This document shows, piece after piece, positions 21,361 to 64,000 of a DNA stretch of 64,000 bases (position 1 is its first letter; each line of letters begins with the position of its first letter). Source of the stretch: Candidatus Eiseniibacteriota bacterium (GTDB lineage Bacteria > Eisenbacteria > RBG-16-71-46 > JABDJR01). Both the position numbers and the translations under genes were made by a program. Below the pieces are notes generated by a model that saw only the letters and a list, made by a program, of their open reading frames with translations, was not told where the DNA came from and ran no database searches. The stretch covers positions 624,406 through 688,405 of the forward strand of contig CAVYIE010000004.1 of the NCBI GenBank assembly GCA_963768615.1, in the 5' to 3' direction.

Positions 21361-21754
21361 TGCCCGGGTCCGCCGGCCCTGGAATGGCCGCGGACGCCGG
21401 TCGCGCACCCCCTACCAGTCGGTGCTGTGGGTGGCGGCGTTCTGCCTGGTCATGCTCTTCGTGTGGGAGCGGGCCTCGGTGGACCGCCTGGTGGTGAGGC
21501 TGGAGAAGGCGCGCGAGGTCCAGAAGGACCTCCAGACCGACCTGAGCTCCCTGAGCATGGAGGCGGACCGCCTCTCCAACCTGGTGCAGGTGGAGACCCG
21601 GGCCAAGGAGGAGCTGGGGCTCCGCTGCCCCACCCCCAAGGAGATCGTCCTCCTCGACTTCGACGGCGTCCCCGACGACCACCGGCAGTTCGCCATGGGG
21701 GCCCTGGTCCCCGAGGCCTCGGCCGCGGAGCGCGGCAAGACGGGGACCCGGTGA
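21344..21754 (+). CDS. ftsL: Cell division protein FtsL-like
   Basis: Short cytoplasmic part, one TM segment and a coiled coil ending RAKEELGL; position between rsmH and ftsI. Confidence 0.8.
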   Translation: MRFPLDARVRRPWNGRGRRSRTPYQSVLWVAAFCLVMLFVWERASVDRLVVRLEKAREVQKDLQTDLSSLSMEADRLSNLVQVETRAKEELGLRCPTPKEIVLLDFDGVPDDHRQFAMGALVPEASAAERGKTGTR

Positions 21755-23795: not shown

Positions 23796-23798
23796 TCG

Positions 23799-27749: not shown

Positions 27750-27769
27750 CCGGGGAAGGAGCGACGGCG

Positions 27770-30356: not shown

Positions 30357-32627
30357 ATGTCCGAAGAACGCAACCAAGAGCCGGGAGCGGGATCCGGCGG
30401 ATCCGAGAACGCTTCCGAAGACCGGCCCCGGGGAACCCGGCGGCGCCGGCGCCGCGGACGCCGCGGCTACGAAGGACGACCGGAATGGCAGGGGGGAGAG
30501 GGCGGGGGATCCGAAGCCTCGGGCGGCGGACGGGAGAGCCGGAGAGAGAGCGCATCCGGAGGGGGCGGCGAGCCGGCCCCGGACCGCGGTGACCGTCCCT
30601 CCCGGGCTTCCGGCCGCGGGTCGGGCGGCGGCGGCTCCGAGGCCCCGGCGCGGGAGGCGACGCGCTCCGCCGGGGAGCGGGCCCCCCGGTCCGAGGATCG
30701 GGACCGGAACCGGGGCGAGGAGCCGGCCGGGGCCGGCGGCCGTTCCCGGGAAGGCGGCGAGGAGGCCCGCGAGGGCCGCCGTCCCCGCCGCCGGGGCGTG
30801 CGCCGCCGGCGCGGAGCTTCGAGCGAAGGTGAGCCGGGCGCGGCCGGGGCCGCGGCCGGGGCGTCCCCGGCGGAGACCGGCGGGGAGCGGCCGGAGGAAG
30901 GAGCCGGGGACCGGCGCGGCGAGCGCCGGGACCGGGAGGAGCGCCCGGCGGCGGAGGCCGCGGGCGAAGCCGGGAAGGGGGCTCCCGGGAGCGAGGGCGA
31001 GCGGGGCGAGTCCGGCGGGCGAGAGCGCCGGCGCCGTTCCCGCCGGCGGCGCTCCCGGGACCGGAGCGGGTCCGAAGGCGGAGAGAGCCGGGGCGGCGAC
31101 GAGGATCGCCCCGCAGAGGGGGGCCGGTCCTCGACGGCGGCGGCCCCTGCCGCCTCGGGCGAGGAGCCGGCCGACCGGAGCCGGCGGCGCCGGTCCGGCG
31201 AGCCGTCCCGGGATCGCGATCGCGGCCGGGACCGGGACCGGGACCGGGACCGGGACCGCGGCCGGGAGCGGAGCGGCTCCGGCCGCGACAGCGCCTCCCG
31301 CGGCGGTTCCCGGGACGCCCGCAGCCGGAGCGGGGGACGGAGTGACCGCGGTGAGCGCGGCGGGGGACGCCGGCCCTACGGCGGCCGGCAGGGGGCCTCG
31401 CGGCCCCAGCCCCTGCGGCCCACCGCCGCCCTCACCCTCCCCCCCCAGCCGGTGCGGGTGATGATCGCCGGCGGCGGGACCGGGGGGCACATCATCCCCG
31501 CGCTCTCCATCGGCGAGGCCCTCAAGCAGCGGAACCCCGCGACCGAGCTGCTCTTCCTGGGCAGCGACCGGGGCATCGAGCGGGAGATGATCGGGGAGGC
31601 CGGACACCGGCTGGAGGAGTTCCCGGTCCGCGGGCTGCCGCGGCGTCCGGACGCGGACTCCTTCCGCAACGCGTTGGCCATGTTCCGGGCCTATCGCCGC
31701 ATCCGCCGGCTGATCGACGAGTTCAAGCCGGGGGTGCTGGTGGGCACCGGCGGCTACGTGATCGTCCCCGCGGTGATCGCGGCCTGGCGGGCCAAGGTTC
31801 CGGTGGTGCTCCAGGAGCAGAACAGCGTGCCCGGCCGGGCCAACCGGTTCCTGGCCCGCTTCGCCCGGGAGATCCACATCCACTTCGCCGAGTCCCGCCG
31901 GTACTTCAAGGGCCGGGGACGGCTGCGGCTCTCCGGGAACCCGGTGCGGGTCAAGATCTCCGAGGGCCGGGCGCTCAAGACCCTGAGCCGGCTGCGGCTC
32001 TTCTCCGACCGGCGCACGGTGCTGATCCTGGGCGGATCCCAGGGGGCCCACAGCCTGAACGTGGCCTTCATGGACATGCTCCCCCGGTTCCGGGGCGACC
32101 GCACGGTGCAGTTCGTGATCCAGACCGGCAAGGAGGATTACGAGGCGGTGCAGGAGGCGGTGCGAGCCTCGGGAGTGCGCGCGGTGGTACGCCCCTTCTT
32201 CAACGAGATGGAGGAGCTCTACGGCATCGCCAACCTGGTGGTGGGCCGGGCGGGGGCGATGACCATCTCCGAGATCTCGGCCTGCGGCCTGGCCAGCATC
32301 CTGGTTCCCTATCCCCACGCCATGGACGACCACCAGACCGCCAACGCCGAGGCCCTGGCCGGCAAGGACGCGGCGGTGATCCTCCGCGACGCCGAACTCA
32401 CCGCGGACCGTCTGGCCGAGGAGATCCGCAAGCTCCTGGCCGACCCGGCCCGCCTCCGGGGCATGGCCCGGAACGCCTTCGCCCTGAGCCGTCCCGACGC
32501 GGCCAAGCGGATCGCGGAGGCGGTGGAGAAGCTGGGGGGCGGCGCTCCCCAGTCCATGCTCCACCTGCCCGAGGAATACGACACCGAGGACGAAGAGGCC
32601 GAGACCGAGGAAGCGGGGGTGCGCTAG
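30357..32627 (+). CDS. murG: MurG with a 365-aa low-complexity N-terminal extension and acidic C-terminal tail
   Basis: MurG core from about 31452 (IAGGGTGGH, EQNSVPGRAN, GGSQGA, RAGAMT, VPYP...HQ); ATG directly follows the ftsW TAA with GGAGAG upstream. Confidence 0.92.
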   Translation: MSEERNQEPGAGSGGSENASEDRPRGTRRRRRRGRRGYEGRPEWQGGEGGGSEASGGGRESRRESASGGGGEPAPDRGDRPSRASGRGSGGGGSEAPAREATRSAGERAPRSEDRDRNRGEEPAGAGGRSREGGEEAREGRRPRRRGVRRRRGASSEGEPGAAGAAAGASPAETGGERPEEGAGDRRGERRDREERPAAEAAGEAGKGAPGSEGERGESGGRERRRRSRRRRSRDRSGSEGGESRGGDEDRPAEGGRSSTAAAPAASGEEPADRSRRRRSGEPSRDRDRGRDRDRDRDRDRGRERSGSGRDSASRGGSRDARSRSGGRSDRGERGGGRRPYGGRQGASRPQPLRPTAALTLPPQPVRVMIAGGGTGGHIIPALSIGEALKQRNPATELLFLGSDRGIEREMIGEAGHRLEEFPVRGLPRRPDADSFRNALAMFRAYRRIRRLIDEFKPGVLVGTGGYVIVPAVIAAWRAKVPVVLQEQNSVPGRANRFLARFAREIHIHFAESRRYFKGRGRLRLSGNPVRVKISEGRALKTLSRLRLFSDRRTVLILGGSQGAHSLNVAFMDMLPRFRGDRTVQFVIQTGKEDYEAVQEAVRASGVRAVVRPFFNEMEELYGIANLVVGRAGAMTISEISACGLASILVPYPHAMDDHQTANAEALAGKDAAVILRDAELTADRLAEEIRKLLADPARLRGMARNAFALSRPDAAKRIAEAVEKLGGGAPQSMLHLPEEYDTEDEEAETEEAGVR
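31227..31256 (+). repeat. (CGGGAC)x5 in-frame tandem repeat encoding (Arg-Asp)5
   Basis: Read directly from the sequence. Confidence 0.9.
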
Positions 32628-34025
32628 GTGTACGGGAAGATCGGACGCATCCACATGATCGGGATCGGGGGCTCGGGGATGAGCGGCATCGCCGAGGTCC
32701 TCCTGAACCTGAACTACGAGGTCAGCGGGTCCGACCTCCACCGCACCCCGGTCACCGACCACCTGGTCGGCCTGGGGGCCCGGGTGGCCGAGGGGCACCG
32801 GGCGGAGCTGGTCCGGGGGGCGGCGGTGGTGGTGGCCTCCACCGCGGTCCGGGACACCAACCCCGAGGTGGCCGAGGCCCGCCGGCTGGGCATCCCGGTC
32901 ATCGCCCGGGCGGAGATGCTGGCCGAGCTCATGCGCATGAAGCACGGGGTGGCGGTGGCCGGGGCCCACGGCAAGACCACCACCACCTCCCTGGTGGCCG
33001 CGGTCCTGGCCGGGGGCGGGTTCGACCCCACCGTGGTGGTGGGGGGGCGGGTCCGGGCCCTCGGCACCAGCGCCCGCCTGGGCACCGGCGAGTTCCTGGT
33101 CGCCGAGGCCGACGAGAGCGACGGCTCTTTCCTCCGTCTGAATCCCACCCTCGCCGTGATCACCAACATCGACCGGGAGCACCTCGACCACTGGAAGGGG
33201 GGGATCGAGGAGATCCAGGACGCCTTCGTGGACTTCGCCAACAAGGTCCCCTTCTACGGGGCGGACGTGGTCTGCCTGGAGGACCCCCGGGTGCGGGAGG
33301 TGTTCCCCCGGCTGGAGCGGCGGGTCATCACCTACGCCGCGGCCGAGGAGGCCGACTACCGGCTGGCCGACCTCCGCGGCCACGACGACTTCAGCACCTC
33401 CTTCGACGTGCTCGAGAAGGGCTTCCTCCTCGGCCGGGCCCGGCTCCGCATGCCCGGCCGGCACAACGCGCTCAACGCCCTGGCCGCGGTGGCGGTGGGC
33501 CGGGAGCTGGGGATGGAGACGCGGGCCATCTTCGAGGCCCTGGAGGCCTTCGAGGGGGTCTCCCGGCGCTTCGAGGTCAAGGGCGAGGAGGCGGGGGTGC
33601 TGGTGGTGGACGATTACGGCCACCACCCCAACGAGATCCGGGCCGTGCTGCGGGCGGCCCGGGAGCACGGCGGGCGGCGGGTGGTGGCGCTGTTCCAGCC
33701 CCACCGGTTCACCCGCACCCGGGACCTGGGGGAGGAGTTCGCCGGCTGCTTCGCCGACGCCGACCTCGTCTTCCTGACCGCCATCTACGCCGCCGGCGAG
33801 GATCCCATCGAGGGGGTGTCGGCGGAGGCGGTGGCCGAGGCGGTCCGCTCCGGCGGGCACCGGGCCTGCCGCTACGTGCCCGGCCTGGAGGACCTGCCGG
33901 AGGCGGTCCGGGGCGAGCTCCGGTCCGGAGACGTGGTCATCACCCTCGGGGCGGGGGACATCCACAAGGCGGGAGAGGCCCTGCTCTCCCTGCTGGCCGC
34001 CCACGGCGTGGGAGTGGAGGCGTGA
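32628..34025 (+). CDS. murC: MurC ligase
   Basis: [34 protein letters not shown] and FQPHRFTRT motifs. Confidence 0.96.
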
Positions 34026-34951
34026 CGACCGCCCCCGGCGTGGCCGCGGCCCTGGAGGCCGCCGCTCCGGGAGCGGTGCGCCGGAAGGTGTCCCTGGCCC
34101 CGTTCTGCTCCTACAAGACCGGGGGCGCGGCCGACTGGCTGGTGGAACCGTCCACCGAGGCCCAGGTCGCCGCGGTCCTGGCCGCGGTCCGGGAGCTGGA
34201 GCTGCCGCTCTTCGTGCTCGGGGGGGGGACCAACCTCCTGGTGCGGGACGGCGGGGTGCGGGGGGTGACCCTGCGCCTGGGCCGGACCTTCCGCACCGCC
34301 GAGGTCCGGGGCACGGAGCTCCACGCGGGGGCCGTGGCCCCCATGTCCCTGGCCGGGGCGGCGGCGGAGCGGGCCGGGCTCACCGGCTTCGAGTTCGCCT
34401 TCGACATCCCCGGCACCGTGGGCGGGGCCCTGCGCATGAACGCGGGCGCCCACGGGGGGGAGATCCGCGACGTGCTGGCCCGGGTGGAGGGTTGCGACCT
34501 GGCCGGGAAGCCGGTCCGGGTGGAGGCCTCGGAGATACGCTTTTCCTACCGCCGGGCGGTCTACCCGGCGGACATGGTCTTCCTGCGCGGCGTGTTCGCC
34601 CTCGCCCCCGGCGACCCCGCCGAGGTGGCCGGGCGCCGCCGCCGCTACCACGAGTACCGGCTGGCCACCCAGCCCAAGGGGCTGAGCGTGGGCTCCACCT
34701 TCATCAACCCCGAGGGGGACAAGGCGGGGAGGCTGATCGAGGCCGCCGGGCTCAAGGGCTTCCGGGTCGGGGACGCGGTGGTCTCCATCAAGCACGCCAA
34801 CTGGATCCTGAACGAGGGGAAGGCCAGCGCGGCCGAGATCGAGGCGGTGATCGACGCCGTGCGCGAGCGGGTGCGGGAGCGGTTCGGGGTGGACCTGGAG
34901 CCGGAGGTCCGGATCGTGGGCGAGCCCGCGGGCCGGGAGGCGCTCCGGTGA
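34022..34951 (+). CDS. murB: MurB reductase
   Basis: [30 protein letters not shown] and KHANW motifs. Confidence 0.95.
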
Positions 34952-35817
34952 CCGGCCGCACCCCGGGAACGACGCACTTCGATCCCGACGGCGCCCGGCG
35001 GGCACTCCGGCGCCGCCGGCGCCGCCGCCGCGTGCGCCGGGGGCTGGCCTGGATGGTGGTGAGCGCGATCGCGGTGGTGGCCGGGATGGGGGTCGCCCTG
35101 GGCTGGAACGCGGGGCTGACCTGGGTCCGCACCCACACCCGGATCTTCGAGGTCCAGGCCCTGGAGGTGTCGGACACCGACTGGGTCCCGCCCTGGGAGC
35201 TGGCCGAGCTGTGCGGGGTGCACCCCGGTGACGACATCCTGGCCGTGGACCCGGACTCGGTGGCGGTCCGGCTGGCCGAGCACCCGAGGGTGGACCACGC
35301 CCGGGTGACCCGGACCTGGCATCGCACGGTGCGGCTCACGGTGACCGAGAAGGCTCCGGTGGCGCTGCTGGTCTCCGGCCGCACCTTCGAGATCGCGGCG
35401 GACGGGACCGTGCTCGGTCCGCCCCCGCTGAGAGCGGAATGGCCGGTGCCGGTCACCGGTTCCGACGAGCCCCGGGGGGTGGAGCTTCCGCTCCTCACCG
35501 GGGTGGACGGCTCCCGGCTGCGGCCGGGCAACGTGCTGGAGGGTCCGGGGGTCCGGCGGGCGCTGACCTTCCTGACCCGTCTGCGCACCTACGGGTGCCC
35601 CGGATCGGGGTGGCTGTCCGAGGTCTGGGTGGACCGCCCGGAAGGGCTGGTGGCGGTCACCCTGGACGGCACCGCGGTCCGGATCGGGGACGGGAGGCTG
35701 AGCGCCCGCAAGGTCGAGGCCCTGATGACGGTCCTGAAGCGGATGCGCGACGACGGGCGCCAGGTCGAGTACGTGGACGCCCGGTTCCGCAATCAGGTCA
35801 TCGTCAAGGAAGGCTGA
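34948..35817 (+). CDS. ftsQ: FtsQ/DivIB
   Basis: Arg-rich cytoplasmic N-terminus, one TM segment, POTRA domain, C-terminal YVDARF; position before ftsA. Confidence 0.85.
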   Translation: MTGRTPGTTHFDPDGARRALRRRRRRRRVRRGLAWMVVSAIAVVAGMGVALGWNAGLTWVRTHTRIFEVQALEVSDTDWVPPWELAELCGVHPGDDILAVDPDSVAVRLAEHPRVDHARVTRTWHRTVRLTVTEKAPVALLVSGRTFEIAADGTVLGPPPLRAEWPVPVTGSDEPRGVELPLLTGVDGSRLRPGNVLEGPGVRRALTFLTRLRTYGCPGSGWLSEVWVDRPEGLVAVTLDGTAVRIGDGRLSARKVEALMTVLKRMRDDGRQVEYVDARFRNQVIVKEG

Positions 35818-35839
35818 GGAAAGGCAGGTGAGGGTCCCC

Positions 35840-37057
35840 ATGCGAACCTACGTCGGACTGGACATCGGCACCACCAAGACCGCGGCGGTGATCGCGGAGC
35901 CGGACGAGCGGGGGACGCTGAAGGTGATCGGGGTGGGGCACGCCCCCTCGGCGGGCATCCGCCGGGGGGTGGTGGTCGACCTCGAGAGCACGGTCCGGTC
36001 CATCCGGACCGCGGTGGCCGAGGCCGAGCGCATGTCCGGGGAGCCGGTCCGCCAGGTCACCGCCGGCATCGCCGGGGAGCACGTCCGCTCCATCAACAGC
36101 CGGGGGGTGATCGCGGTGAGCCGGGGGGGGACCGAGATCGGCCCCGACGACGTGAGCCGGGTGGTGGAGGCGGCCCGGGCAGTGGCCATCCCCGGGGACC
36201 GGCAGGTCCTCCACGTCATCCCCCAGGAGTACGTGGTGGACGAGCAGGCCGGGATCAAGAACCCGGTGGGCATGAGCGGGGTCCGGCTGGAGGCCGAGGT
36301 CCACATCGTGACCGGGGCGGTGACCAGCGCCCGCAACGTGGAGAAGGCGGTCCAGCGGTCCGGCCTCCGGGCCGGGTCCCTGGTCCTGGAGCCCCTGGCT
36401 TCCTCCTACGCCGTCCTGGCCCCGGACGAGAAGGAGCTGGGGTGCCTGCTCATCGACCTCGGGGGAGGGACCACCGACCTGGCCCTGTTCTACGAGGGGG
36501 CGGTCCGCCATACCGCGGTGATCGGGCTGGGGGGAAACAACGTCACCCACGACCTGGCCGTGGGTCTTCGGACTCCCACCGAGGCCGCGGAGGAGATTAA
36601 GATACGGCACGGGTCCGCCACCGCGGACCGGGTGGGGGCGGAGGAGACGGTCGAGGTGCCGGGGGTGGGGGGGCGGGACGCCAAGCCCATCCCGCGGCAG
36701 GTTCTGGCCTCCATGATCGAACCGCGTATGGAAGAGATCTTCACCATGGTTTATCGTGAGGTGAAGAAGAATCTCTTCAGCGAGCTATTGGCCGGGGGCG
36801 TGGTCCTGACCGGCGGCGGCGCGTGCCTGGAGGGGGTGGAGGACCTCGCCGAGCGCATCTTCGAGATGCCGGTGCGGCGGGGGGTGCCCCGGGGGGTAAC
36901 CGGGATCCGCGAGGCGGTGGAGGATCCACGCTACGCCACCGCGGTGGGCCTGGTCATCTACGCGCGGGAGAAGGACGGGGAGGAAAGGCCGGAGGATCCC
37001 CGGCTCCTGAATCGGATCTCGGCGCCGGTCCGGCGCTGGCTGGGGGAGTTTTTCTAG
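35840..37057 (+). CDS. ftsA: Cell division protein FtsA
   Basis: GLDIGTTK, DLGGGTTD and VVLTGGG motifs; C-terminal amphipathic VRRWLGEFF. Confidence 0.96.
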   Translation: MRTYVGLDIGTTKTAAVIAEPDERGTLKVIGVGHAPSAGIRRGVVVDLESTVRSIRTAVAEAERMSGEPVRQVTAGIAGEHVRSINSRGVIAVSRGGTEIGPDDVSRVVEAARAVAIPGDRQVLHVIPQEYVVDEQAGIKNPVGMSGVRLEAEVHIVTGAVTSARNVEKAVQRSGLRAGSLVLEPLASSYAVLAPDEKELGCLLIDLGGGTTDLALFYEGAVRHTAVIGLGGNNVTHDLAVGLRTPTEAAEEIKIRHGSATADRVGAEETVEVPGVGGRDAKPIPRQVLASMIEPRMEEIFTMVYREVKKNLFSELLAGGVVLTGGGACLEGVEDLAERIFEMPVRRGVPRGVTGIREAVEDPRYATAVGLVIYAREKDGEERPEDPRLLNRISAPVRRWLGEFF

Positions 37058-37135
37058 ACGGAAGCAGGTGATGGCTTCCCGGGCCGGTGATGGCCCGAAG
37101 GCAGGACCGCCCCGCGGGGCGCAAAGGAGGGAAAC

Positions 37136-38314
37136 ATGATGCTGGAACTGGTGGAGCCCAAGACGCACGCCATCCTCAAGGTCATCGGCGTGGGCGGCGC
37201 CGGCGGCAACGCGGTCAACGGCATGGTCCAGGGGGGCCTCAGCGGGGTCGAGTTCGTGGCCATGAACTCGGACGCCCAGGTGCTGGAGCAGAGCCTGGCC
37301 GGGCTGAAGGTGCAGCTCGGGGACACCGTGACCCAGGGCCTGGGTTGCGGGGGCAAGCCCGAGGTGGGGCGCCAGGCCGCCGAGGAATCGGTGGAGTACA
37401 TCCGCGACTCGGTGCGGGGCGCGGACATGGTGTTCATCACCGCGGGCATGGGCGGCGGTACCGGCACCGGCGCCTCGGCGGTGGTGGCCCGGGTGGCCCG
37501 GGAAGAGGGCGCGCTCACGGTGGCCGTGGTCACCAAGCCCTTCATCTTCGAGGGACGCCAGCGGGGCCGGCAGGCCGAGGAGGGCCTGGCCGCCCTCCGG
37601 GACGAGGTGGACACCCTCATCGTCATCCCCAACCAGCGCCTGCTCACCGTGACCGACGCCAAGACCACCCTCCTGGACGCCTTCAAGCGGGCGGACGAGG
37701 TGCTGTTCCACGCCACCCGCGGCATCAGCGACCTCATCACCGTGCCCGGCCTCATCAACCTGGACTTCGCCGACGTGAAGGCGGTGATGAGCTCCCGCGG
37801 GAACGCGCTCATGGGCACCGGCTACGCCTCGGGCGACGGCAGCGCCGAGGACGCGGCCCGCATGGCCATCTCCAGCCCCCTCCTGGAGGACGTGAGCATC
37901 TCCGGGGCGGAGGCGGTGCTGGTCAACATCTGCGGCGGTCCCGACCTGGGCATCCACACCGTGAGCGAGTCCATGAACATCGTGAACGAGGCGGTGGGAG
38001 GCGACGCCAACGTGATCTTCGGCGCGGTCATCGATCCCGAGATGGGCGACGGGGTGCGGATCACCGTAATCGCCACCGGCTTCGGCCAGGTCGCGGTGGA
38101 GGAGAAGCGGGAGGAGGCCCGCCGGCCCCGGTCCAAGGGCGAGGCGGCCCTGGAGCGGCTCATCGGGCGGACCCCGGCCGAGCCGGCCCCGGCCCCGGCC
38201 CGCGAGGCCAAGGAGTCCACGCCCGGCCCCGGGTTCAGCAACGAACGGTGGGCCCGGGTCTACGGCAAGGAGAGCCTGGAGGTCCCGACCTTCATTCGCA
38301 AGCAGATGGACTGA
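37136..38314 (+). CDS. ftsZ: Cell division protein FtsZ
   Basis: VIGVGGAGGN, GMGGGTGTG, GLINLDFADV and C-terminal LEVPTFIRKQMD motifs. Confidence 0.98.
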   Translation: MMLELVEPKTHAILKVIGVGGAGGNAVNGMVQGGLSGVEFVAMNSDAQVLEQSLAGLKVQLGDTVTQGLGCGGKPEVGRQAAEESVEYIRDSVRGADMVFITAGMGGGTGTGASAVVARVAREEGALTVAVVTKPFIFEGRQRGRQAEEGLAALRDEVDTLIVIPNQRLLTVTDAKTTLLDAFKRADEVLFHATRGISDLITVPGLINLDFADVKAVMSSRGNALMGTGYASGDGSAEDAARMAISSPLLEDVSISGAEAVLVNICGGPDLGIHTVSESMNIVNEAVGGDANVIFGAVIDPEMGDGVRITVIATGFGQVAVEEKREEARRPRSKGEAALERLIGRTPAEPAPAPAREAKESTPGPGFSNERWARVYGKESLEVPTFIRKQMD

Positions 38315-45018: not shown

Positions 45019-46374
45019 TCATGAGGAAGGCGAGGAAGTTTCTTTCAAGCCGTATTCCCGGATCTTCTTGCGCAGGGTGGGGCGCGAGACCCCCAGCACC
45101 TCGCAGGCGCGCCCCTGGTGCCACCCCACCGCGTCCAGAACCCGGTGCACGTGTTCGGCCTCCACCTCCTGCAGGCTCCGGAGCGGCGAGGGATGGGGCG
45201 ACTCGGTGAGGAGGGCTTCCTCCAGGCTCTTGGAGGGGAGTTCCAGCACCTCCCCCTTGCTCAGCACCACCGCCCGGGTGAGGACGTTCTCCAGTTCCCG
45301 GACGTTTCCCCGCCAGTCGTAGCGGACCAGCTGGGCCATGGTGTCGTCGGGGATCTTGTAGACCTCCTTGTGCACCTCGGTGTTGATCTTCTGGAGGAAG
45401 TGCTCGACCAGGAGGGGTATGTCCTCCCTCCGTTCCCGCAGCGGCGGCACGTGCACGGTGATGACCTTGAGGCGGTAGTAGAGGTCCTCGCGGAAGTTCC
45501 CGGCCGCGACCAGCGCCTCCAGGTTCCGGTTGGTGGCGGTCACCACCCGGGCATCGGTGTGCAGCACGTCGCTCCCCCCCACCCGGGTGAACTCCCGCTC
45601 CTGGAGTACCCGCAGGACCTTGGTCTGGAGGTTGGGCGACATGTCGCCGATCTCGTCCAGGAACATGGTGCCCTTGCCGGCCAGCTCGAACTTCCCCGGC
45701 TTGCGGTAGCTGGCCCCGGTGAAGGCCCCCTTCTCGTGGCCGAAGAGCTCGCTCTCCAGCAGGGTGTCCACGATGGCCGAGCAGTTGACCGAGATGAAGG
45801 GCTCGGCGGGGGAGGCGTTGGCGTGGATGGCGTGGGCCACCAGCTCCTTGCCGGTTCCGCTCTCGCCGGTGATGAGGACGGTGGTGTTGCTGGAGGAGAC
45901 CACCCCGATGGTCTTGTAGATCTCCAGCATCGGCTTGCTCTTGCCCACCAGCACGTGCTGCTTCACCGGCTCGCTGCGTTCGGCCTGGAGCCGGGACACG
46001 GCCTGGGTGAGCCGGCGGTTCTCCCGGGCCTTGTTGACCACGATCTCCAGCTTCTCGGGATCGAAGGGCTTGTCGATGTAGTCGAAGGCCCCGTGCTGCA
46101 TGGCCGCCACCGTGGTTTCCATGTCCTGGTAGGCGGTGATCATGATCACGTAGGCGTCGGCGTCCATGCGCCGGATCTCGCTCAGGACCTCGAGGCCGGT
46201 CCCGTCGGGAAGCCGCACGTCGCAGATCACGTAGTTCGGTTTGACCTCCTGGAACAACCGCAGACCCTCGGCCTTGGAGAGGGCGGTGTGGGTCTCGAAG
46301 TTCTTGCTCCGGAAGAACAGGGAGAGCTCCCGGCAGAGGTTGGTCTCGTCGTCGATGATCAGCAGGCGTTCCAT
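45019..46374 (-). CDS. NtrC-family sigma54-dependent response regulator
   Basis: Receiver domain (IDDE, CDVRLP), [14 protein letters not shown], Fis-type HTH. Confidence 0.95.
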
Positions 46375-46375
46375 G

Positions 46376-47527
46376 TCAGGCCTCATCGATCGGGGTCTCG
46401 GGCAGCCGGAGCGTCACCGTGGTTCCCCGTCCGGGAGTGGACTCCAGGTTCACCGTACCCCCGTGGAGGATCATGATCCTCTGCACGTTGGACAATCCCA
46501 GGCCGAGCTGCTGGGACGTGGTCGAGAAGAAGGGCTCGAAGACCCGGGCCTGGAGGTGGGGGGCGACGCCCGGCCCGTTGTCCCGCACCTCGACCAGCCA
46601 GTGGGTGCCCGCGGGGGCCGGCTGTCGCTTGACCACCACGTGCACCTCCCCCTTGTTCTCCATGGCCTCGGAGGCGTTCTGGACCACCTGGCTCACCGCC
46701 TGGGCGAACTGGCCGGGGTCGAGACGCAGCCGGGGCCCCGTCCGGGGGAACTGGCGGAAGAGGGCCACCGACTTCAGGGCCAGGGTGGGGCGCACGTCCT
46801 CGAGGCCCCGGTTGATGACCTCGATCAGGTTCAGGTTCTCGAAGCGCGGCTTGGGGGGGCGGGCGTAGTTGACCAGGGTGCGCAGGAAGAGCTCGATGCG
46901 GTTGGTCTCCTCCCGGGCGATGGAGAAATGGAGCGCCTCGTCCCCGACCGGGTCCCGTCCGTCCTCGAGCATGTAGAGGCTCATCTTGATCGCGGACAGG
47001 TGGTTCCGGATCTCGTGGGCCATGTTGTGGGCGATGAGGCCGAGGGTTCCGAGCTTCTCCTCGGCCACCAGCCGCTGCTGGAAGGCCCGCTGCTCGGTGA
47101 TGTCCCGGGCCACCCACACCAGCATGGGCGGCCCCCCCGACCGGCTCTGGAGGAGGGTGGTCTCCAGGAAGACCGGGAAGCTCGAGCCGTCCTTGCGGAA
47201 CCCGGTGCTCTCCCCCTTCCACCCTCCCCGCCCCGCTTCCCGGAGCAGGGCCTTGAATTCCCGGGGCTCCAGGGTGGGGCCGTTCAGGATCTCGATGCTC
47301 TGCCCGATGAGTTCCCCCAGTTCGTAGCCGAGGGCGTTGATGATGCGCCGGTTGACGTAGAGCAGCCGGCCCTCCAGGTCGGTGGCGGCGATGCCGACCG
47401 GGACCCCCTCCATGATCAGGAAGAGGTCCTCCACCTCCCGAGAGAGGGGGGCGTCCGGGCGGACTCTGGACCGGGAAAGTTGTTTTCCAATGGCCGGCCT
47501 TTCGGGCTCCGATGGAGCGAATTCCAA
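46376..47527 (-). CDS. Cytoplasmic PAS sensor histidine kinase (start uncertain)
   Basis: PAS domain (LLYVN), H-box AHEIRN, DNGPG, FEPFFST and GLGLS motifs; no TM segment seen. Confidence 0.9.
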   Translation of the reverse strand: MEFAPSEPERPAIGKQLSRSRVRPDAPLSREVEDLFLIMEGVPVGIAATDLEGRLLYVNRRIINALGYELGELIGQSIEILNGPTLEPREFKALLREAGRGGWKGESTGFRKDGSSFPVFLETTLLQSRSGGPPMLVWVARDITEQRAFQQRLVAEEKLGTLGLIAHNMAHEIRNHLSAIKMSLYMLEDGRDPVGDEALHFSIAREETNRIELFLRTLVNYARPPKPRFENLNLIEVINRGLEDVRPTLALKSVALFRQFPRTGPRLRLDPGQFAQAVSQVVQNASEAMENKGEVHVVVKRQPAPAGTHWLVEVRDNGPGVAPHLQARVFEPFFSTTSQQLGLGLSNVQRIMILHGGTVNLESTPGRGTTVTLRLPETPIDEA

Positions 47528-47612
47528 TATCGTCCTAAAGATAGAGGGGCGAAGTTGGATTCTTCAAGGCAAAGCGTGACCGGCGAGGGGGGGAGCCGGG
47601 AGGCGGGGGGGG

Positions 47613-47804
47613 TCAGCTCTGGGGCGGGGTGGGGTCGGCCACCACCGGCGCCGGGGCGTAGCCCGCATAGGCGGGGCAGTTCCGACGGATCGGGCAGCTG
47701 GGCGGACCCTGGGTCATGGGACAGGACCCCACCACCCGGTTGTGATGGCGGCAGTAGAAGGAATGAACCGGGGTGTCGGCGCCGCTCCGCTTGAACTTGA
47801 ACAT
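47613..47804 (-). CDS. 63-aa Cys/His-rich small protein
   Basis: MFKFKRSGADTPVHSFYCRHHNRVVGSCPMTQGPPSCPIRRNCPAYAGYAPAPVVADPTPPQS; GGAGG RBS; high GC3; lies just downstream of a sigma54 site. Confidence 0.7.
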   Translation of the reverse strand: MFKFKRSGADTPVHSFYCRHHNRVVGSCPMTQGPPSCPIRRNCPAYAGYAPAPVVADPTPPQS

Positions 47805-47852
47805 GCCCGTCGTGCCTCCGCCTGGATGCTGGTGGGTGATGCCCCCCTTCAA

Positions 47853-47868
47853 TGCAACTTGCGTGCCG
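47853..47868 (-). promoter_or_regulatory. sigma54 promoter
   Basis: CGGCACG-CAAG-TTGCA on the minus strand. Confidence 0.85.
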
Positions 47869-48095
47869 ACGCCGGGTTGAGGGATCGAGGCCGGGGCCGG
47901 CCGCCGTGCGGGATCGGGTAAGCGGCCGTGTCCAAAAGGGTTGTGTCCTGGGGGGCGTTCTCCGGGGCCTCGGGGGGACGGTCGGTGAGGCCGCAGTTCG
48001 CCCGGGCGGGCCGGGCAGGAATCCACCGCGGCGGCGCGAAACCACCCGATCGGGCCGGGAACGGCCCCGCCGGCGAGATTCCTCCCCGCCCCGCT

Positions 48096-48122
48096 TCAAG
48101 TCCGCCTCCGCCCCGCCGATAG
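48096..48122 (+). promoter_or_regulatory. sigma28 (FliA) promoter upstream of the MglA-like gene
   Basis: TCAAG-N14-GCCGATAG, 74 bp before ATG 48197. Confidence 0.8.
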
Positions 48123-48196
48123 ATGCACCAGAGGCGGATCCCGCCACGCGTGGATCCAGGTGAAGAGGGCTCCAGGGAACCAAGGGGGTTCGTCCC

Positions 48197-49627
48197 ATGG
48201 TCGTCGTGTCTTACTCGGGGAAAGAGATCAACGCCAAGCTGGTCTATTACGGTCCCGGACTCAGCGGGAAGACCACCAACCTCGAGTACATCTACCAGAG
48301 CGTGCCCAACAGCAACCGGGGCAAGATGGTCTCCATGAAGACCCGGACCGAGCGCACGCTCTTCTTCGACTTCCTGCCCGTGGACCTCGGGGAGATGGGC
48401 GGGTTCAAGACCCGGTTCCTTCTCTACACCGTGCCCGGCCAGGTCTATTACAACGCCACCCGGAAGCTGGTGCTCCGGGGGGTGGATGCGATCATCTTCG
48501 TGGCCGACTCCGCCCGGGGGAAGATGGACGAGAACCTCGAGTCCCTCCGGAACCTCCACGACAACCTCAAGGAGTACGGCCTTTCCCTCGACGAGATCCC
48601 CTTCGTGGTCCAGTACAACAAGCGGGACATCGAAGACGTGTACAGCGTCGAGGAACTGGAGCAGGCCCTGAACCCCACCGGGGCGCCCTACTACGAGGCG
48701 GTGGCCACCACCGGTCAGGGCGTATTCGAGACCTTCCGCGGCATCGCGCGGGTCCTGCTCCAGAAGCTCAGCAAGGAGATCAAGGTGGGCGAGGGACGCA
48801 GCCTGGAGGCGAAGTCGGCCGCGTTGGCGAGCCCGGCCGAGCCTGCGGCCCCGGGACGGAAGACGGAGGCGCCGGCCCCCGTTCCCCCCGCTCCGGCCCC
48901 CGTCGCCGAGACTCCTTCCTTTACCAAGCCGCCGCGGCCGGAGTTGGTCCGGGCCTCGGAGCCCGTTCCCGTGCCGGAGACCCAGGCGGGCCCGGTCCGG
49001 GGCGCGGAACCGGATCCGGAACCCCGGCCCGAGGCGGAAACCGAGCCCCTGGGGGCCGGGGACGGGGCCCAGGAAACCCCGGCCGAGACCCCCGCTCCGG
49101 CTCGCCGGTCCCCCTACGGACCGCCCCGCCGGCCCGCCTCGCCGCCCGCGCCGGAGCCCCGGGCTCCGGAGCCGGTCGCGGAGGAGCATGCGGAACCCGG
49201 GAAGCCCGCCCCGGCGCCGGAGGCGGTGGAGGCCCGGCCGGAACCGGCCCTCCCCAGCCCGCCCGAACCGGTGCGGGAGCCCGAGACCGTCACCGCGCAG
49301 CAAAGGACCGCCATGGCCGCACGCCCCCGACCCGACTCCGCCGCCGACCCCGAGGAGCGCCCCGGCTTCTGGGGCCGTCTCTTCGGCCGCGGGAACAAGG
49401 AAGAGCAGGGAGCCGGCGCCTCGCCGGCGACCCGGGAAGCCCGCCTGGCCCCGGTGGAGCTGCCCGCGGTGGGCGGCTCCGGGGACGCCTCCCCGGTGTT
49501 CATCGAGCGCCGGATCCAGGTCCCGATCACCCTCGGGCCCGAGGAGATGGTGCGGGGAGCGCGGCTCCGGCTGGTGCTGGAGATCCAGGTGGAGGCATCC
49601 GGCGAGTCCGGGAGCAAGGTGGCCTGA
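48197..49627 (+). CDS. mglA: MglA-family small GTPase with a long Pro/Glu/Ala-rich C-terminal extension
   Basis: EINAKLVYYGPGLSGKTTNL, RTLFFDFLP, LYTVPGQVYY and NKRD motifs; about 280-aa tail containing GFWGRLFGR. Confidence 0.9.
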   Translation: MVVVSYSGKEINAKLVYYGPGLSGKTTNLEYIYQSVPNSNRGKMVSMKTRTERTLFFDFLPVDLGEMGGFKTRFLLYTVPGQVYYNATRKLVLRGVDAIIFVADSARGKMDENLESLRNLHDNLKEYGLSLDEIPFVVQYNKRDIEDVYSVEELEQALNPTGAPYYEAVATTGQGVFETFRGIARVLLQKLSKEIKVGEGRSLEAKSAALASPAEPAAPGRKTEAPAPVPPAPAPVAETPSFTKPPRPELVRASEPVPVPETQAGPVRGAEPDPEPRPEAETEPLGAGDGAQETPAETPAPARRSPYGPPRRPASPPAPEPRAPEPVAEEHAEPGKPAPAPEAVEARPEPALPSPPEPVREPETVTAQQRTAMAARPRPDSAADPEERPGFWGRLFGRGNKEEQGAGASPATREARLAPVELPAVGGSGDASPVFIERRIQVPITLGPEEMVRGARLRLVLEIQVEASGESGSKVA

Positions 49628-49803
49628 CCGACCGCTTTCGGGACCGAAATCCCGGAGTTCGAGCCCGCCGACGGGGACCCAACCGGTCCCCGTCGGTGTA
49701 TAGAGGGACGGAACGGGGGCCGGCGCCGGTGTCCGGTTGACGGAGCCGGGACCCTCCACTACTCTTGATCCAGGTTCCGTCCAAGGCGTTCCGGAGGCCC
49801 GTC

Positions 49804-60126: not shown

Positions 60127-60231
60127 AAAGTGATTCCCCGCGGTCCGAGCCCGGGCTCACCCGGCTTCCGGACCGGACGGACGGATTCCCCGCCGGCCCG
60201 GCGAGCGCCGCCGGACCCGCGGGGGAAGCGC

Positions 60232-61218
60232 GTGGGGGACGCACCGGTGAACGGACGGGACGGATTCGGAACGCGGGACGGGATCGCGGTGGGGCCCAGG
60301 CCGCGGCTCAAGCTGGTGCCGGGGGGACGGCCCGGCCTCGAGACGCCCCGCCCCCGGAGCCTGGCTCCGCTGCGCACCCTGGCCCTGGCCAGCGGCAAGG
60401 GCGGCGTGGGCAAGACCAGCCTCGCCGTGAACCTGGCCCTGGCCCTGGCCGATCTCCGCCAGCGGGTGCTGGTGGTGGACGGCGACCTGGGCCTGGGGAA
60501 GCTGGACCTGCTCATCGGGGCCACCCCGACGCTGCATCTCGGCCACGTCCTGGCCGGGGAGTGCGACATCCTGGATGCGGTGATCACCGGCCCCCGCGGG
60601 GTCCGGTTCCTGCCCGGCGCCTGCGGCGAGGGTTCCCTGGCCGTGCTGGATCCTCTTCGGCGCCGCCGGCTCCTCGAGAGCCTGGATCGCTTCCGGGGCG
60701 CGGTGGACCTGGTCATCCTGGACCTGGCCACCGGGATCGGACCCAACGCCCTGGAGCTCGCCCGCGGCGCGGACGAGGTGGGCGTGGTCACCACCCCCGA
60801 GCCCACCGCCTACGCCGACGCCTACGCCCTGATCAAGCTTCTCTCCGGACGCGGTTCGCTGCCGCCCCGGATCGTGGTCAACCGGACCCGCGACGAGGAG
60901 GAGGGCCGCGAGACCTTCCTCCGCATCTCCACCACCGCCAAGCGGCACCTCGGGGTGTCCCCGACCTTCTGGGGCGCCATTCCCGAGGACGCGGCGGTGC
61001 AGGACGCGGTCCGCGGCCAGCTTCCCTTCACCCTGAGCGCGCCGGACGCCCCGGCCAGCCGCCACGTGCGGGAGCTGGCCTGGCGGATCGTGCGGGGCCG
61101 GCACCCCGACGGGGGGAACCGTGTTCCCGCGGCGGGGTTCGCCCCGTCCCCGGCCGCTCCCGGATCGCTCCGGCGGAGTGCCGCCGCCGGTGGACCGCCG
61201 CTGCCCGAGGCGGCCTGA
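60232..61218 (+). CDS. flhG: FlhG/FleN-type MinD-like ATPase (start 60232 or 60247)
   Basis: ASGKGGVGKT deviant Walker A, DGDLGLGKLD and TTPEPTAYADAYALIK motifs; adjacent to fliA. Confidence 0.88.
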   Translation: MGDAPVNGRDGFGTRDGIAVGPRPRLKLVPGGRPGLETPRPRSLAPLRTLALASGKGGVGKTSLAVNLALALADLRQRVLVVDGDLGLGKLDLLIGATPTLHLGHVLAGECDILDAVITGPRGVRFLPGACGEGSLAVLDPLRRRRLLESLDRFRGAVDLVILDLATGIGPNALELARGADEVGVVTTPEPTAYADAYALIKLLSGRGSLPPRIVVNRTRDEEEGRETFLRISTTAKRHLGVSPTFWGAIPEDAAVQDAVRGQLPFTLSAPDAPASRHVRELAWRIVRGRHPDGGNRVPAAGFAPSPAAPGSLRRSAAAGGPPLPEAA

Positions 61219-61258
61219 ACCCGTGACCTCACCGACTACCCGAAGGAGACCCACCGAC

Positions 61259-62032
61259 ATGGCCACGCAGCGCATCGCCACCCGCACCACGCCCGATCTT
61301 CCCGCCAAGCCGGGAAGCTGGAGCAAGCCGTCCAAGGACGAGGCCTACCGCCGCTATGCCCCGCTCATGAAGTACGTGGTGGACCGCGTGGCCTCCAACG
61401 TGCCCAAGTACGTGGAACGGGACGACCTGCTCAACGCCGCCGCCCTGGGGCTGTTCGATGCCCTGGAGAAGTACGACAGCGGCAAGGGAACCAAGTTCGA
61501 AACCTACGCGGTGTGGCGGATCCGGGGCGCGGTGCTGGACGAGCTGCGGGCCATGGACTGGGCCAGCCGTTCGGTGCGGCGCAAGGCGCGCCACGTGGAC
61601 ACCCTCACCCGGGACCTGGACCAGCGTCTGGGCCGGGCGGCCAGCGACGACGAGCTGGCCGAGGCCATGGAGATCTCCTCCACCGAGATGGCCCGGGTGC
61701 TGGAGGAGGTGCGCGGAGTGGTGCTCCTCTCCCTCAACCAGTCCCCCAACGACACCGAGGAAGGCCATTCGGGCGGCCTGGCCGAGGTGATCGAGGATCC
61801 CAACACCGAGGACGCCCTGGACGAGATCGAGAAGCAGCAGCTCTCCGAGGTGCTGGTGGACGTGATCAGCGATCTCTCCGAGCAGGAGAAGCTGGTGCTC
61901 GCCCTCTACTACTACGAGGAGATGACCTTGAAGGAGATCGGCCAGACCCTGGGCATCTCCGAGAGCCGGGTCTCCCAGATCCACACCAAGGCGATCTCCC
62001 GCCTCCGGGGGCGGATGCGGCGCGCCGCCTGA
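61259..62032 (+). CDS. fliA: FliA/WhiG-family sigma factor (sigma28)
   Basis: DDLLNAAALGL, KFETYAVWRIRGAVLDELRAMDWASRSVR and LKEIGQTLGISESRVSQIH motifs. Confidence 0.95.
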   Translation: MATQRIATRTTPDLPAKPGSWSKPSKDEAYRRYAPLMKYVVDRVASNVPKYVERDDLLNAAALGLFDALEKYDSGKGTKFETYAVWRIRGAVLDELRAMDWASRSVRRKARHVDTLTRDLDQRLGRAASDDELAEAMEISSTEMARVLEEVRGVVLLSLNQSPNDTEEGHSGGLAEVIEDPNTEDALDEIEKQQLSEVLVDVISDLSEQEKLVLALYYYEEMTLKEIGQTLGISESRVSQIHTKAISRLRGRMRRAA

Positions 62033-62056: not shown

Positions 62057-62072
62057 CGGCACGGCCCTTGCA
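62057..62072 (+). promoter_or_regulatory. sigma54 promoter for the GAF/GGDEF-like gene
   Basis: CGGCACG-GCCC-TTGCA, 24 bp after the fliA stop. Confidence 0.85.
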
Positions 62073-62378
62073 ATTTGCATGACCGGCGGGGCGATCCGCC
62101 CGGCCGGAGATCACATCGAACGGGGGGGAAGACTTGGACGCAGCCGACCGAACCGCCGGCGAACGACCCGAAACGGCCCTGGAGGGGTCTTTCGGGGGTG
62201 CCGCCGGCCCGGTCGGGGGCCCGCCGGACCCGGGGGGGACCGGCGGCCCGGACCGGCCTCGCATTGCGCGACGGCCGATTCCTGACCGGTGGAACGGACG
62301 ATTCCCGACCACCGGCTCCCGGTCCAGCCTCCGCCCCGGACGCACCCTGACCCGACACCCAGACGGAGGGACCCTCGC

Positions 62379-63671
62379 GTGAAGACGACCCGCAAGCGCA
62401 CCTCGGCCAAGACCGCCGCCGGCAAGACCGCCGCCGGCAAGACCGATCGCAAGACCGCCAGGAGCCGTCCCACCGCCGCCAAGGCGGCCCGGGAGAAGGT
62501 GGCCCTGGTGGAGAGCCTCCAGGGCATGGGCCTGCTGGAGCAGACCGAGGCCGAACGCCTGGAGAAGAAGGCCGAAACCCTGGGGGCGGAGAAGAGTTCC
62601 GAGGGTCTGAACCGGGCCGCGGGCTGGGACCGGAACCTGCGGACCAGCCTGGAAGGATTCTCGGTGTCCGGCGGGGACAAGAACGCCGCCCACGCCCTCC
62701 AGGCCCTGATGCTCTGGCAGGGTGGGCTGGCCGGGCTCTCCGCCGATCCCGAGGGCATCGGCGAGGCCATCGGCGCTCTGAGGAAGGTGGTTCCGTACTC
62801 GGGGGCCACGCTCTTCCTCCGCGATCCCGACCGGCAGACGGTGAGGCCGGTGGTGTCCCTGGGCATCCCGGTCGACCTGATCAGCCGGATCCGGTTCAGC
62901 GAGGGGATGGGTTTCTCCTCCTGGGTGGCCGGGCGCCGGAAGCCGGTGCTCTACGCCTCCCTGCACCGCAACGAGGCCCCGGGGGAAGACCGGGTGCGGT
63001 CCTTCATCTCCGTGCCCCTGGTGGTGGGGGAGGCCTGCGTGGGGGTGCTGAACCTGGGCCATCACGAGGACGGATTCTACGGCCCGGCCCACCTCCGGAC
63101 CCTGATCCTGGCCGCGGCGGTGCTGGCGTCGCTGGTCCAGCGCCACGTGGCCCTGAACCAGATCGCGGAGCGGGAGATCCGCGACCCGAAGACCGGGCTG
63201 GCCACCGCCGGGTACCTGCGCTCCCGGCTGGAGGAGGAGGTGGTCCGCTGCCGCGAGCTGGGCCACTCCATGAGCCTCCTCGTGTTCCGCCTCAACGAGC
63301 TGGAAGAGCACGTGGAGCGGTTCGGACCCGAGTATCGCGGGCGCTGCCGGTCGGAGCTGGCCGAGCTGGTCTCGGCCTGGCGGGAGCCCTCCGAGCTGGT
63401 GGGCCACGGGACCGACGACCGGGTGGTGGTGATCCTCCCCTCGGCGCGCCGGGAGAAGGCGGAAGCCCGGGCGGCCGCTCTCCGCGAGGCCCTCGAGAAG
63501 CACAACTTCCCCCGGCGCAAGCGGATGACCGTCGGCCTGGGCCTGGCCACCTATCCCGCCGACGCAGAAGCGGCTCAAGATCTATACGATGCCGCCGATA
63601 AGGCGTTGTATGACACGGCGCGAACCCGGCCCGGAGAACCGGCCGGGATCCAGCCTATGGCCCTGTCCTGA
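62379..63671 (+). CDS. GAF plus degenerate GGDEF-domain protein with a Lys/Ala-rich N-terminus
   Basis: GAF domain (GEGMGF-like ..WVA...SFISVPL...VGVLNL); DPKTGL, GTDDR in place of GG(D/E)EF, and ADKALY motifs; GGAGG RBS. Confidence 0.85.
   Translation: MKTTRKRTSAKTAAGKTAAGKTDRKTARSRPTAAKAAREKVALVESLQGMGLLEQTEAERLEKKAETLGAEKSSEGLNRAAGWDRNLRTSLEGFSVSGGDKNAAHALQALMLWQGGLAGLSADPEGIGEAIGALRKVVPYSGATLFLRDPDRQTVRPVVSLGIPVDLISRIRFSEGMGFSSWVAGRRKPVLYASLHRNEAPGEDRVRSFISVPLVVGEACVGVLNLGHHEDGFYGPAHLRTLILAAAVLASLVQRHVALNQIAEREIRDPKTGLATAGYLRSRLEEEVVRCRELGHSMSLLVFRLNELEEHVERFGPEYRGRCRSELAELVSAWREPSELVGHGTDDRVVVILPSARREKAEARAAALREALEKHNFPRRKRMTVGLGLATYPADAEAAQDLYDAADKALYDTARTRPGEPAGIQPMALS
63575..63601 (+). 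promoter_or_regulatory. sigma28 promoter embedded in the 3' end of the GGDEF-like gene
   Basis: TCAAG-N14-GCCGATAA, 94 bp before ATG 63696; built from codons rare in this genome (GCT CAA GAT CTA). Confidence 0.7.
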
Positions 63672-63695
63672 TCCAGGAGGGCGGTGCGGACCCAC

Positions 63696-64000
63696 ATGAC
63701 CGAACACCAAGACGTTCCGTTCAACCCCGAGATCCGGCCCCGGCTCCTGGTCGTGGACGACGAGGAGAACGTGGTCCAGATCCTCCAGGATCTGTTCAGC
63801 GAGCGCCCCTACGACGTGGACACGGTCACCTCGGGGGAGGAGGCGCTGGAACGGCTGGAGGCCAACCGGTACGACCTGCTCCTCACCGACATCAACCTTC
63901 CCGGAGTGAACGGGCTGAAGGTGGTGGAGGCGGCCAAGAACGCCGATCCCGACATCGTGATGATCGTCATCACCGGTTACGCCTCCACCGGGACCGCCAT
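63696..64000 (+). CDS. Response-regulator receiver-domain protein (partial)
   Basis: LLVVDDEE...LLLTDINLPGVNG...ITGYAS; AGGAGG upstream; truncated by the window end. Confidence 0.9.
   Translation, partial: MTEHQDVPFNPEIRPRLLVVDDEENVVQILQDLFSERPYDVDTVTSGEEALERLEANRYDLLLTDINLPGVNGLKVVEAAKNADPDIVMIVITGYASTGTA

Follow-up and report, generated by a model that had tools for sequence, protein, structure and literature searches.

The window analysed here is a 64 kb stretch of a Candidatus Eisenbacteria genome (an uncultured soil bacterium with a G+C content of ~72%), which encodes the Ras-like polarity GTPase MglA and, 13 kb downstream of mglA, a sigma-28 factor of the FliA/WhiG family. Direct reading of positions 47500-48600 revealed the sequence TCAAGTCCGCCTCCGCCCCGCCGATAG at 48096-48122 (+), upstream of mglA, which is very likely a sigma-28 promoter whose target is of a new kind (Table 1). 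The site combines a -10 element of the GCCGATAA type with a -35 element of the form TAAA(G)/T(C/T)AAG, and its spacer falls within the 14-16 nt characteristic of sigma-28 promoters. The original prediction, which was made from the sequence of the window, had reported the motif TCAAG-N14-GCCGATA 74 bp ahead of mglA and assigned it to sigma-28; reading and pattern search both recovered it at 48096-48121, and sequence and spacing fit the sigma-28 consensus, with a FliA/WhiG gene located in the same window. The -10 element ends at 48122 and is separated by 74 nt from the mglA start codon (ATG at 48197), which is preceded by a ribosome-binding site (AAGGGGG, 48182-48188). Neither a sigma-70-like promoter nor an activator-type inverted repeat was found in the mglA intergenic region, and the 5′ leader of mglA contains no significant structure (z = -0.02).

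The window contains exactly two copies of TCAAG-N14-GCCGATA, at 48096-48121 (+) and 63575-63600 (+), and 100 dinucleotide-preserving shuffles of the window yielded none. The chance expectation of ~0.002 per 128 kb, which the original prediction had roughly estimated, was reproduced by hand (0.14^6 x 0.36^6 x 128000). Short motifs do recur generally, and nothing else speaks for two chance matches; against them stand the empty shuffles, the low analytic expectation and the conservation of the motif in 38 species amid diverged intergenic DNA, so that a chance origin of the two copies is effectively refuted. Both copies had also been described as correctly placed. They are indeed exact, at 48096 and 63575, but the second is not intergenic and falls into the 3′ end of a GGDEF-like gene. 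A third candidate site at 47774-47800 (-), with 11 of the 12 fixed bases, was judged a chance match because it is located within the first codons of a microprotein gene and is not conserved in the related loci L001-L005.

A search with the MglA domain yielded a set of 80 related loci (L001-L080; best identity 91%), with the window's own genome outside this set. The nearest of these loci all derive from Candidatus Eisenbacteria metagenome-assembled genomes (MAGs), followed by Latescibacterota and Krumholzibacteriia. Of 81 loci (these 80 and the window), 38 contain a site with at least 10 of the 12 fixed bases of TCAAG-N14-GCCGATA, and with 13-16 nt between the two blocks, in the 260 nt that precede the mglA start. 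Within Eisenbacteria, at least 11 of the 12 bases were identified no more than 320 nt upstream of mglA in 38 of 56 species, versus 32 of 895 other genes from the same loci (Fisher p = 7e-35, which is overstated since the species are related), and several of these 32 control matches are genuine sites themselves. The background rate over the remainder of the loci is 0.005 per 260 nt. Conservation upstream of mglA orthologues, which the original prediction had proposed as a check, was thus found in the phylum.

In the 38 collected mglA sites, which were preselected at ≥10/12 bases, the T, A, A and G of the -35 element and the C, G, A and T core of the -10 element are nearly invariant, including the entire -10 core CCGAT. 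The spacer is 15 nt long in 30 of these sites, 14 nt in four (including the window), 16 nt in three and 13 nt in one, and its sequence is free. When the window is aligned with its six nearest relatives, most of the intergenic region proves unalignable and only three conserved islands remain, namely the core of a sigma-54 promoter divergent from mglA, the stretch cTTCAAGT...CCGCCGATA, and the ribosome-binding site with the start codon, a pattern that is the classical phylogenetic footprint of two divergent, putative promoters. Furthermore, a soil metagenome contig of 600 nt with ~97% identity to the window differs from it by 15 substitutions in 47948-48147, two of which fall in the spacer and none in the -35 or -10 block. 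Another conserved element, consisting of GCAAGAGCAC, a short variable stretch and GGGCCGCTCCGGC, is found instead of the sigma-28 motif ~80-125 nt upstream of mglA in the Krumholzibacteriia/Latescibacterota loci L042, L046, L047, L049, L056-L058, L064 and L065.

The gene downstream of the motif encodes a true MglA, as originally proposed: residues 3-191 align with Thermus MglA (PDB 3T12, E = 8e-75) and residues 3-193 with Myxococcus MglA (6HJH, E = 6e-74), and all signature motifs are present and identically aligned, including the P-loop GPGLSGKTT, RTLFFDF, TVPGQ (for DTAGQ of Ras) and NKRD. Pfam and NCBIfam give generic small-GTPase matches only. The GTPase domain is followed by a Pro/Glu/Ala-rich linker of ~200 aa and a conserved C-terminal motif of ~35 aa, which is kept in the complete orthologues aligned (40 shown). 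MglA orthologues of Eisenbacteria and related phyla (L001-L080) are mostly ~360-650 aa long, compared to ~195 aa, and contain a disordered Pro/Glu/Ala linker. Their ~35-aa C-terminal motif reads E-R-x-I-x-V-P-V...L-x-x-E-x-L-x-x-G-V-x-L-K-L, and the MglA of the window's clade contains an extra GFWGRLFGR segment. No mglB (roadblock/LC7) gene was identified around mglA in the window or within flanks of 3 kb in its relatives; mglB is not a strict requirement of the MglA family.

The sigma factor of the window scores above the cut-offs of TIGR02479 (256.5 bits; cut-off 189.6) and NF005413 (235.8 bits; cut-off 201), contains the Pfam domains Sigma70_r2, r3 and r4, and matches the structures of Streptomyces WhiG (6PFV, E = 3e-53) and E. 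coli FliA (6PMI, E = 2e-50) over its full length. FliA orthologues were collected from ~44 Eisenbacteria species. At least seven species carry fliA and mglA on one contig, at a distance of 8-60 kb, and an FlhG orthologue (cluster 5) adjoins fliA across Eisenbacteria. The locus type of most species consists of (csrA and a small FlgM-like gene,) genes for a PAS kinase, NtrC and a receiver, flhG, fliA, a GGDEF-like gene and a gene for a response regulator (RR)-GAF-kinase, and that of one subclade reads fliP-fliQ-fliR-flhB-flhA-flhF-flhG-fliA. The sigma-28-type motif found ahead of mglA, here with the consensus TCAAGTCGCTTGC..CTTGCCGATA, also precedes csrA, the identity of which was confirmed by PF02599, by 45-60 nt in more than 20 species (e.g., L067 5741-5767, L068 4956-4982, L095 4865-4891 and L111 4397-4423, as well as more than 15 further loci). 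csrA is followed by a gene of 65-75 aa with a weakly FlgM-like C-terminus, directly upstream of the kinase-NtrC-flhG-fliA cluster.

Sigma-28-type sequences were also seen at other positions of these loci. A conserved site (L095 2266-2292, L096 1758-1784, L105 1729-1755, L111 1754-1780, L119 1883-1909 and L124 1970-1996, all on the minus strand, and others) is located within the final ~15 codons of a co-directional SpoIIE/PP2C-type phosphatase gene and faces into the convergent trpA, so that an antisense RNA, a small RNA or a small open reading frame could be under its control. Sigma-28-like matches to TCAAGGAGTACGCGCTCGG.GACGATA (L106 7652-7678, L109 7669-7695, L118 7614-7640 and L123 7608-7634) are located inside the 3′ part of an NtrC-type activator gene, ~260-350 nt upstream of the next called gene, and may be driven by the coding sequence.

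Two short conserved blocks flanking a free spacer of fixed length constitute a promoter signature, and the site upstream of mglA is therefore read as a promoter rather than as the site of a regulator. Its blocks and spacing match sigma-28 promoters mapped in other phyla, and the motif also precedes csrA and the FlgM-like gene beside fliA. The consensus sequences of ECF, SigB-type and sigma-54 factors differ from this motif. That the bipartite motif is read by another sigma factor or by a DNA-binding regulator, with a merely coincidental resemblance to sigma-28 promoters, is very improbable in view of these features, even though the link between FliA and the site is drawn from motif identity and the sigma factors of this genome were seen within the window only. 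We consider it likely that mglA is transcribed from a promoter recognized by RNA polymerase with the FliA/WhiG-family sigma-28 encoded 13 kb downstream.

In the proposed mechanism, region 4 of sigma-28 would contact TCAAG at -35 and regions 2/3 would contact GCCGATA at -10. Transcription of mglA would start ~7 nt downstream of the -10 element, near 48129 (predicted range ~48128-48131), yielding a 5′ leader of ~67 nt, and the mRNA would probably end at the hairpin at 49664-49698. The level of the long-tailed MglA would follow sigma-28 activity; the latter is presumably governed by the adjacent kinase/NtrC, FlhG and GGDEF-like proteins, with the FlgM-like protein as a further input in relatives. 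Sigma-28 would act within a conserved island comprising the PAS kinase, the NtrC activator, FlhG, FliA, the GGDEF-like protein and the response regulator/kinase, and a second sigma-28 promoter, in the 3′ coding end of the GGDEF-like gene, would drive the response regulator/kinase gene.

Several points weigh against a control of mglA by FliA. The dependence on FliA is deduced from the identity of the motif and from nothing else, 18 of the 56 mglA loci lack a good site, and the relatedness of the species inflates the statistical support mentioned above. The targets of the motif found in the phylum do not include flagellin or any other classic late flagellar gene, none of which was fetched. The FlgM-like gene yielded weak Pfam matches in four of eight members, the best of which (E = 0.017) is below threshold, and no match to a PDB profile. 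Among sequencing runs, the mglA locus was encountered only in DNA metagenomes, and the one RNA run, a metatranscriptome, matched only the conserved coding part of MglA from other organisms, mostly with less than 90% identity. FliA control of mglA as originally predicted thus agrees with the motif, the presence of fliA, the conservation and the csrA motif, while the dependence on FliA itself follows from the motif only. The analysis goes beyond that prediction in that FliA is encoded in the window and in that the putative link extends throughout the phylum, both in flagellated members and in those in which no flagellar export gene was found. Taken together, sequence comparisons support the interpretation of the site as a known kind of promoter with a new, phylum-conserved kind of target.

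Table 1. Coordinates of features in the 64 kb Candidatus Eisenbacteria window
Feature	Position (nt)	Strand	Remarks
dcw cell-division cluster, complete	19200-38300		mraZ, rsmH, ftsI, murE, murF, murD, ftsW, murG, murC, murB, ftsA, ftsZ
NtrC-type sigma-54 activator gene	45019-46386	-	Pfam
PAS histidine kinase gene	46376-47527	-	Pfam
Cys-rich microprotein gene, ~64 aa	47613-47805	-	Downstream of sigma-54 promoter; FYCRHxNRVVGGCP...CP.RR.CPA
Sigma-54 core GGCACGCAAGTTGC	47854-47867	-	Exact GGCAC-N5-TTGC; divergent from mglA
Predicted sigma-28 (FliA-type) promoter of mglA	48096-48122	+	-35 TCAAG 48096-48100; 14-nt spacer 48101-48114; -10 GCCGATAG 48115-48122
mglA, 476 aa	48197-49627	+	N-terminal 195 aa MglA GTPase domain
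Hairpin, terminator-like, without U-tract	49664-49698	+	~40 nt past mglA stop codon; 14-16 bp
FlhG/FleN-like MinD/ParA ATPase gene	60130-61218	+	ParA, CbiA and AAA_31 domains; directly upstream of fliA; start uncertain
FliA/WhiG-family sigma-28 gene	61121-62032	+	Start uncertain; conserved part from ~61256
GAF/GGDEF-like gene	62289-63671	+	3′ end holds second motif copy
Second predicted sigma-28-type promoter TCAAG-N14-GCCGATAA	63575-63601	+	Over codons A-Q-D-L-Y-D-A-A-D-K of GGDEF-like gene
Response regulator-GAF-histidine kinase gene, receiver domain	63684-64000	+	Response_reg; cut by window end; start 63684 or 63697

The second motif copy, with its -10 element GCCGATAA at 63594-63601, falls within the 3′-terminal 100 nt of the GGDEF-like gene and lies ~85-95 nt upstream of the next gene in the same orientation. 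Full-length orthologues of this downstream response regulator/kinase (cluster 1) have the architecture RR-GAF-HisKA-HATPase. The window, L081 and L082 share this copy ahead of the RR-GAF-kinase gene with identical bases, despite different amino acids encoded under the spacer in the three genomes (DLYDAA, ELYEFA and GLLSQA). Furthermore, it requires codons that are rare in the window (GCT, 0.024, and CAA, 0.056, in the -35 block; GAT, 0.14, in the -10 block); for the amino acids encoded, the joint chance of this choice is ~1.2e-4. Alternatively, the second copy might be a by-product of coding sequence and not a working promoter, as GCCGATAAG specifies A-D-K, a conserved part of the ADxALY motif in the GGDEF domain. 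Coding constraint at this protein motif could explain part of the -10 block, the copy is restricted to the three genomes and absent from more distant relatives, and most intragenic FliA sites in E. coli lack a detectable transcript (PMC4183435). This alternative is nonetheless unlikely given the rare codons, the constancy of the bases over differing spacer residues, and the correct orientation and distance relative to the next start codon. Intragenic FliA promoters that drive the next gene are established in E. coli, e.g., inside flhC for motAB (PMC4183435). Because of this precedent, the rare codons and the bases kept in three genomes, we interpret the second copy as probably a working internal promoter for the response regulator/kinase gene, limited to the window's small clade.

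Structural genes for flagella, chemotaxis or pili were not identified in the 64-kb window. A query with a single FlhA protein had returned only two Eisenbacteria; a search with two 9-residue patterns from an Eisenbacteria sub-alignment returned 581 candidate stretches in all, including 501 FlhA relatives, and at least 13 Eisenbacteria assemblies are represented among the 80 loci that were kept. Ten flhA-carrying assemblies correspond to the genomes of mglA loci L011, L012, L014, L016, L020, L021, L023, L026, L029 and L030, and the mglA motif (≥10/12 bases) is present in 10 of 10 flhA-carrying genomes with a fetched mglA locus. One of these ten genomes contains a full fliI...flgE...fliMNOPQR...flhBA cluster. 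By contrast, the two patterns returned no flhA from the window's clade (CAVSKL, CAYRIJ, CAWANH, CAVXKA, CALOCN and CAZWKH) or from four complete or chromosome-level Eisenbacteria records (OY970178, OY970342, OZ245046 and CP070702), two of which carry the kinase-NtrC-flhG-fliA locus type.

In the window and most relatives flhF is missing, and kinase-NtrC-(receiver) genes replace the flagellar export operon ahead of flhG-fliA. The region upstream of fliA contains fliPQR-flhBA-flhF in L083, L085-L088, L161 and L162 versus kinase-NtrC-receiver genes in L084, L089-L124 and the window, and the downstream neighbours of fliA (the GGDEF-like and RR-GAF-kinase genes) are the same in both locus types; this arrangement gives the impression that the flagellar operon was exchanged in situ. 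The organism might still be flagellated, with mglA simply belonging to the late (class III-like) genes of an ordinary flagellar regulon and its flagellar genes encoded elsewhere, since the window covers only 64 kb and ten flhA-bearing Eisenbacteria, one of them with a full flagellar cluster, carry the mglA motif. The lack of FlhA matches in the window's clade and in the four complete or chromosome-level records, together with the absence of flhF and the substitution of the export operon, renders this rather doubtful. Flagella loss in the window's clade and those records is deduced from the missing flhA matches, which are moderate evidence, and the window's lineage is probably devoid of flagella and has retained the sigma-28 module for non-flagellar targets, a reading with moderate support.

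As the link between sigma-28 and mglA is also present in flagellated members, it would predate the loss of the flagellum. We tentatively hypothesize that most Eisenbacteria lost the flagellum and kept its late-gene switch (FlhG, sigma-28, CsrA, the FlgM-like protein and the kinase/NtrC pair), which now runs a polarity programme of long-tailed MglA without MglB, and that mglA was an original member of the late regulon; we regard this scenario as possible, if somewhat short of probable. If true, completion of the flagellum would be coupled to the identity of the cell pole or to a transition between swimming and surface motility.

Exact matches to the sigma-54 core GGCAC-N5-TTGC were found twice in the window, at 47854-47867 (-) and 62058-62071 (+). 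The former contains GG at -24 and GC at -12 with an exact core CGGCACGCAAGTTGCA and an NtrC-type activator gene nearby, and the alignment shows that the core is kept in the window, L001-L005 and L038. The sigma-54 promoter that the original prediction had placed divergent from mglA therefore holds, with an exact core conserved in the six nearest relatives. The microprotein downstream of it has orthologues of ~55-65 aa with four cysteines in L001-L005 and L038 (FYCRHxNRVVGGCPxxxGPxxCPxRRxCPA) and no match to any Pfam or NCBIfam family. The kinase and the NtrC-type activator are probably co-transcribed with the microprotein. A cascade from sigma-54 to fliA was not confirmed, because an exact-core scan of 45 loci identified almost no sigma-54 core upstream of flhG/fliA; in the window, only a site with one mismatch, at 60112, is located upstream of flhG. 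The second exact core of the window, GGCACGGCCCTTGC at 62058-62071 (+), is located downstream of fliA and precedes the GGDEF-like gene by ~218 nt.

The hairpin downstream of mglA has a folding energy of -33.8 kcal/mol (z = -4.3; 0 of 200 shuffles folded as well) and therefore suggests that mglA is monocistronic. The genes next to mglA encode a 183-aa protein without a family, a TPR protein (two genes downstream of mglA) and UppP; the TPR gene recalls the partnership of MglA with a TPR protein in Bdellovibrio. The sequence TTGACG-N17-TACTCT is located within 49727-49765, just ahead of the 183-aa gene at 49765, which suggests that the 183-aa, TPR, uppP and S41 peptidase genes have their own promoter. 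The remaining content of the window comprises the dcw cluster, the murG product of which is unusually long (756 aa), recG and housekeeping genes.

Textbook accounts present sigma-28 as the switch for late flagellar genes and MglA as the switch that sets polarity for pili and gliding in non-swimming bacteria. In agreement with the original prediction, which knew of no described link from FliA to MglA, a full-text literature search found none between FliA/sigma-28 and the MglA GTPase; matches to MglA and FliA dealt with the galactose transporter of E. coli that is also called MglA, or treated the two proteins independently of each other in Bdellovibrio. A phylum-wide promoter link would join two motility and polarity systems hitherto studied apart and would provide a testable case of the targets of a flagellar sigma factor after flagellum loss, for comparison with Legionella longbeachae, Chlamydia and Streptomyces. 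It would also offer a first handle on gene regulation in Eisenbacteria, a widespread soil phylum seen here via MAGs, by defining a putative Eisenbacteria sigma-28 consensus (T-C-A-A-G, N14-16, (G)CCGAT(A)) and three candidate regulon members, i.e., mglA, csrA and the response regulator/kinase gene.

The class III promoters of FliA in E. coli and Salmonella have the consensus TAAAGTTT-N11-GCCGATAA. The site upstream of mglA shares with them the two-block structure, the GCCGATA -10 element, the TAAAG/TCAAG -35 element and the 14-nt spacer. Contrastingly, its predicted target encodes a Ras-like polarity GTPase instead of a flagellar, motor or chemotaxis protein, the spacer of most Eisenbacteria sites measures 15 nt, and the host lineage is probably without a flagellum. 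In Bdellovibrio bacteriovorus, FliA is a global attack-phase regulator with the mapped consensus TTAAG-N16-CCGATA (Karunker et al. 2013, PMC3627812), which is almost identical to the Eisenbacteria motif and corresponds in spacing to its 15-nt class, and sigma-28 likewise controls many non-flagellar genes there. Bdellovibrio also relies on MglA for polarity (PMC13689555). However, it is flagellated, and mglA has not been reported among its mapped FliA promoters: neither the text nor the supplements of the promoter map contain Bd3734 or mglA (PMC3627812). The non-flagellated Legionella longbeachae keeps FliA, FleN and FleS/FleR (Cazalet et al. 2010, PMC2824747). This resembles the window, in which sigma-28, FlhG/FleN and a kinase with an NtrC-type activator are kept and no flagellar structural genes lie nearby, although L. 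longbeachae belongs to another phylum, no MglA target is known there, and its loss of flagella was shown by a complete genome, whereas that in the window's lineage is deduced.

The sigma-28 family also occurs in non-motile bacteria, as exemplified by WhiG of Streptomyces and sigma-28 of Chlamydia. The sigma factor of the window matches the WhiG structure 6PFV as well as it matches FliA, a GGDEF-like (c-di-GMP-type) gene adjoins its gene, and its predicted targets are likewise non-flagellar. It differs from WhiG in scoring below the cut-off of the WhiG equivalog model (252.7 versus 343), in the absence of an identified RsiG-like partner and in the adjacent FlhG-like gene, as in flagellar systems. 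Compared with mglBA of Myxococcus xanthus, the fetched neighbourhoods contain no mglB, and the window's MglA has a tail of ~280 aa and a predicted transcription by sigma-28; its GTPase domain, in turn, is that of a true MglA, ~60% identical and with all signature motifs.

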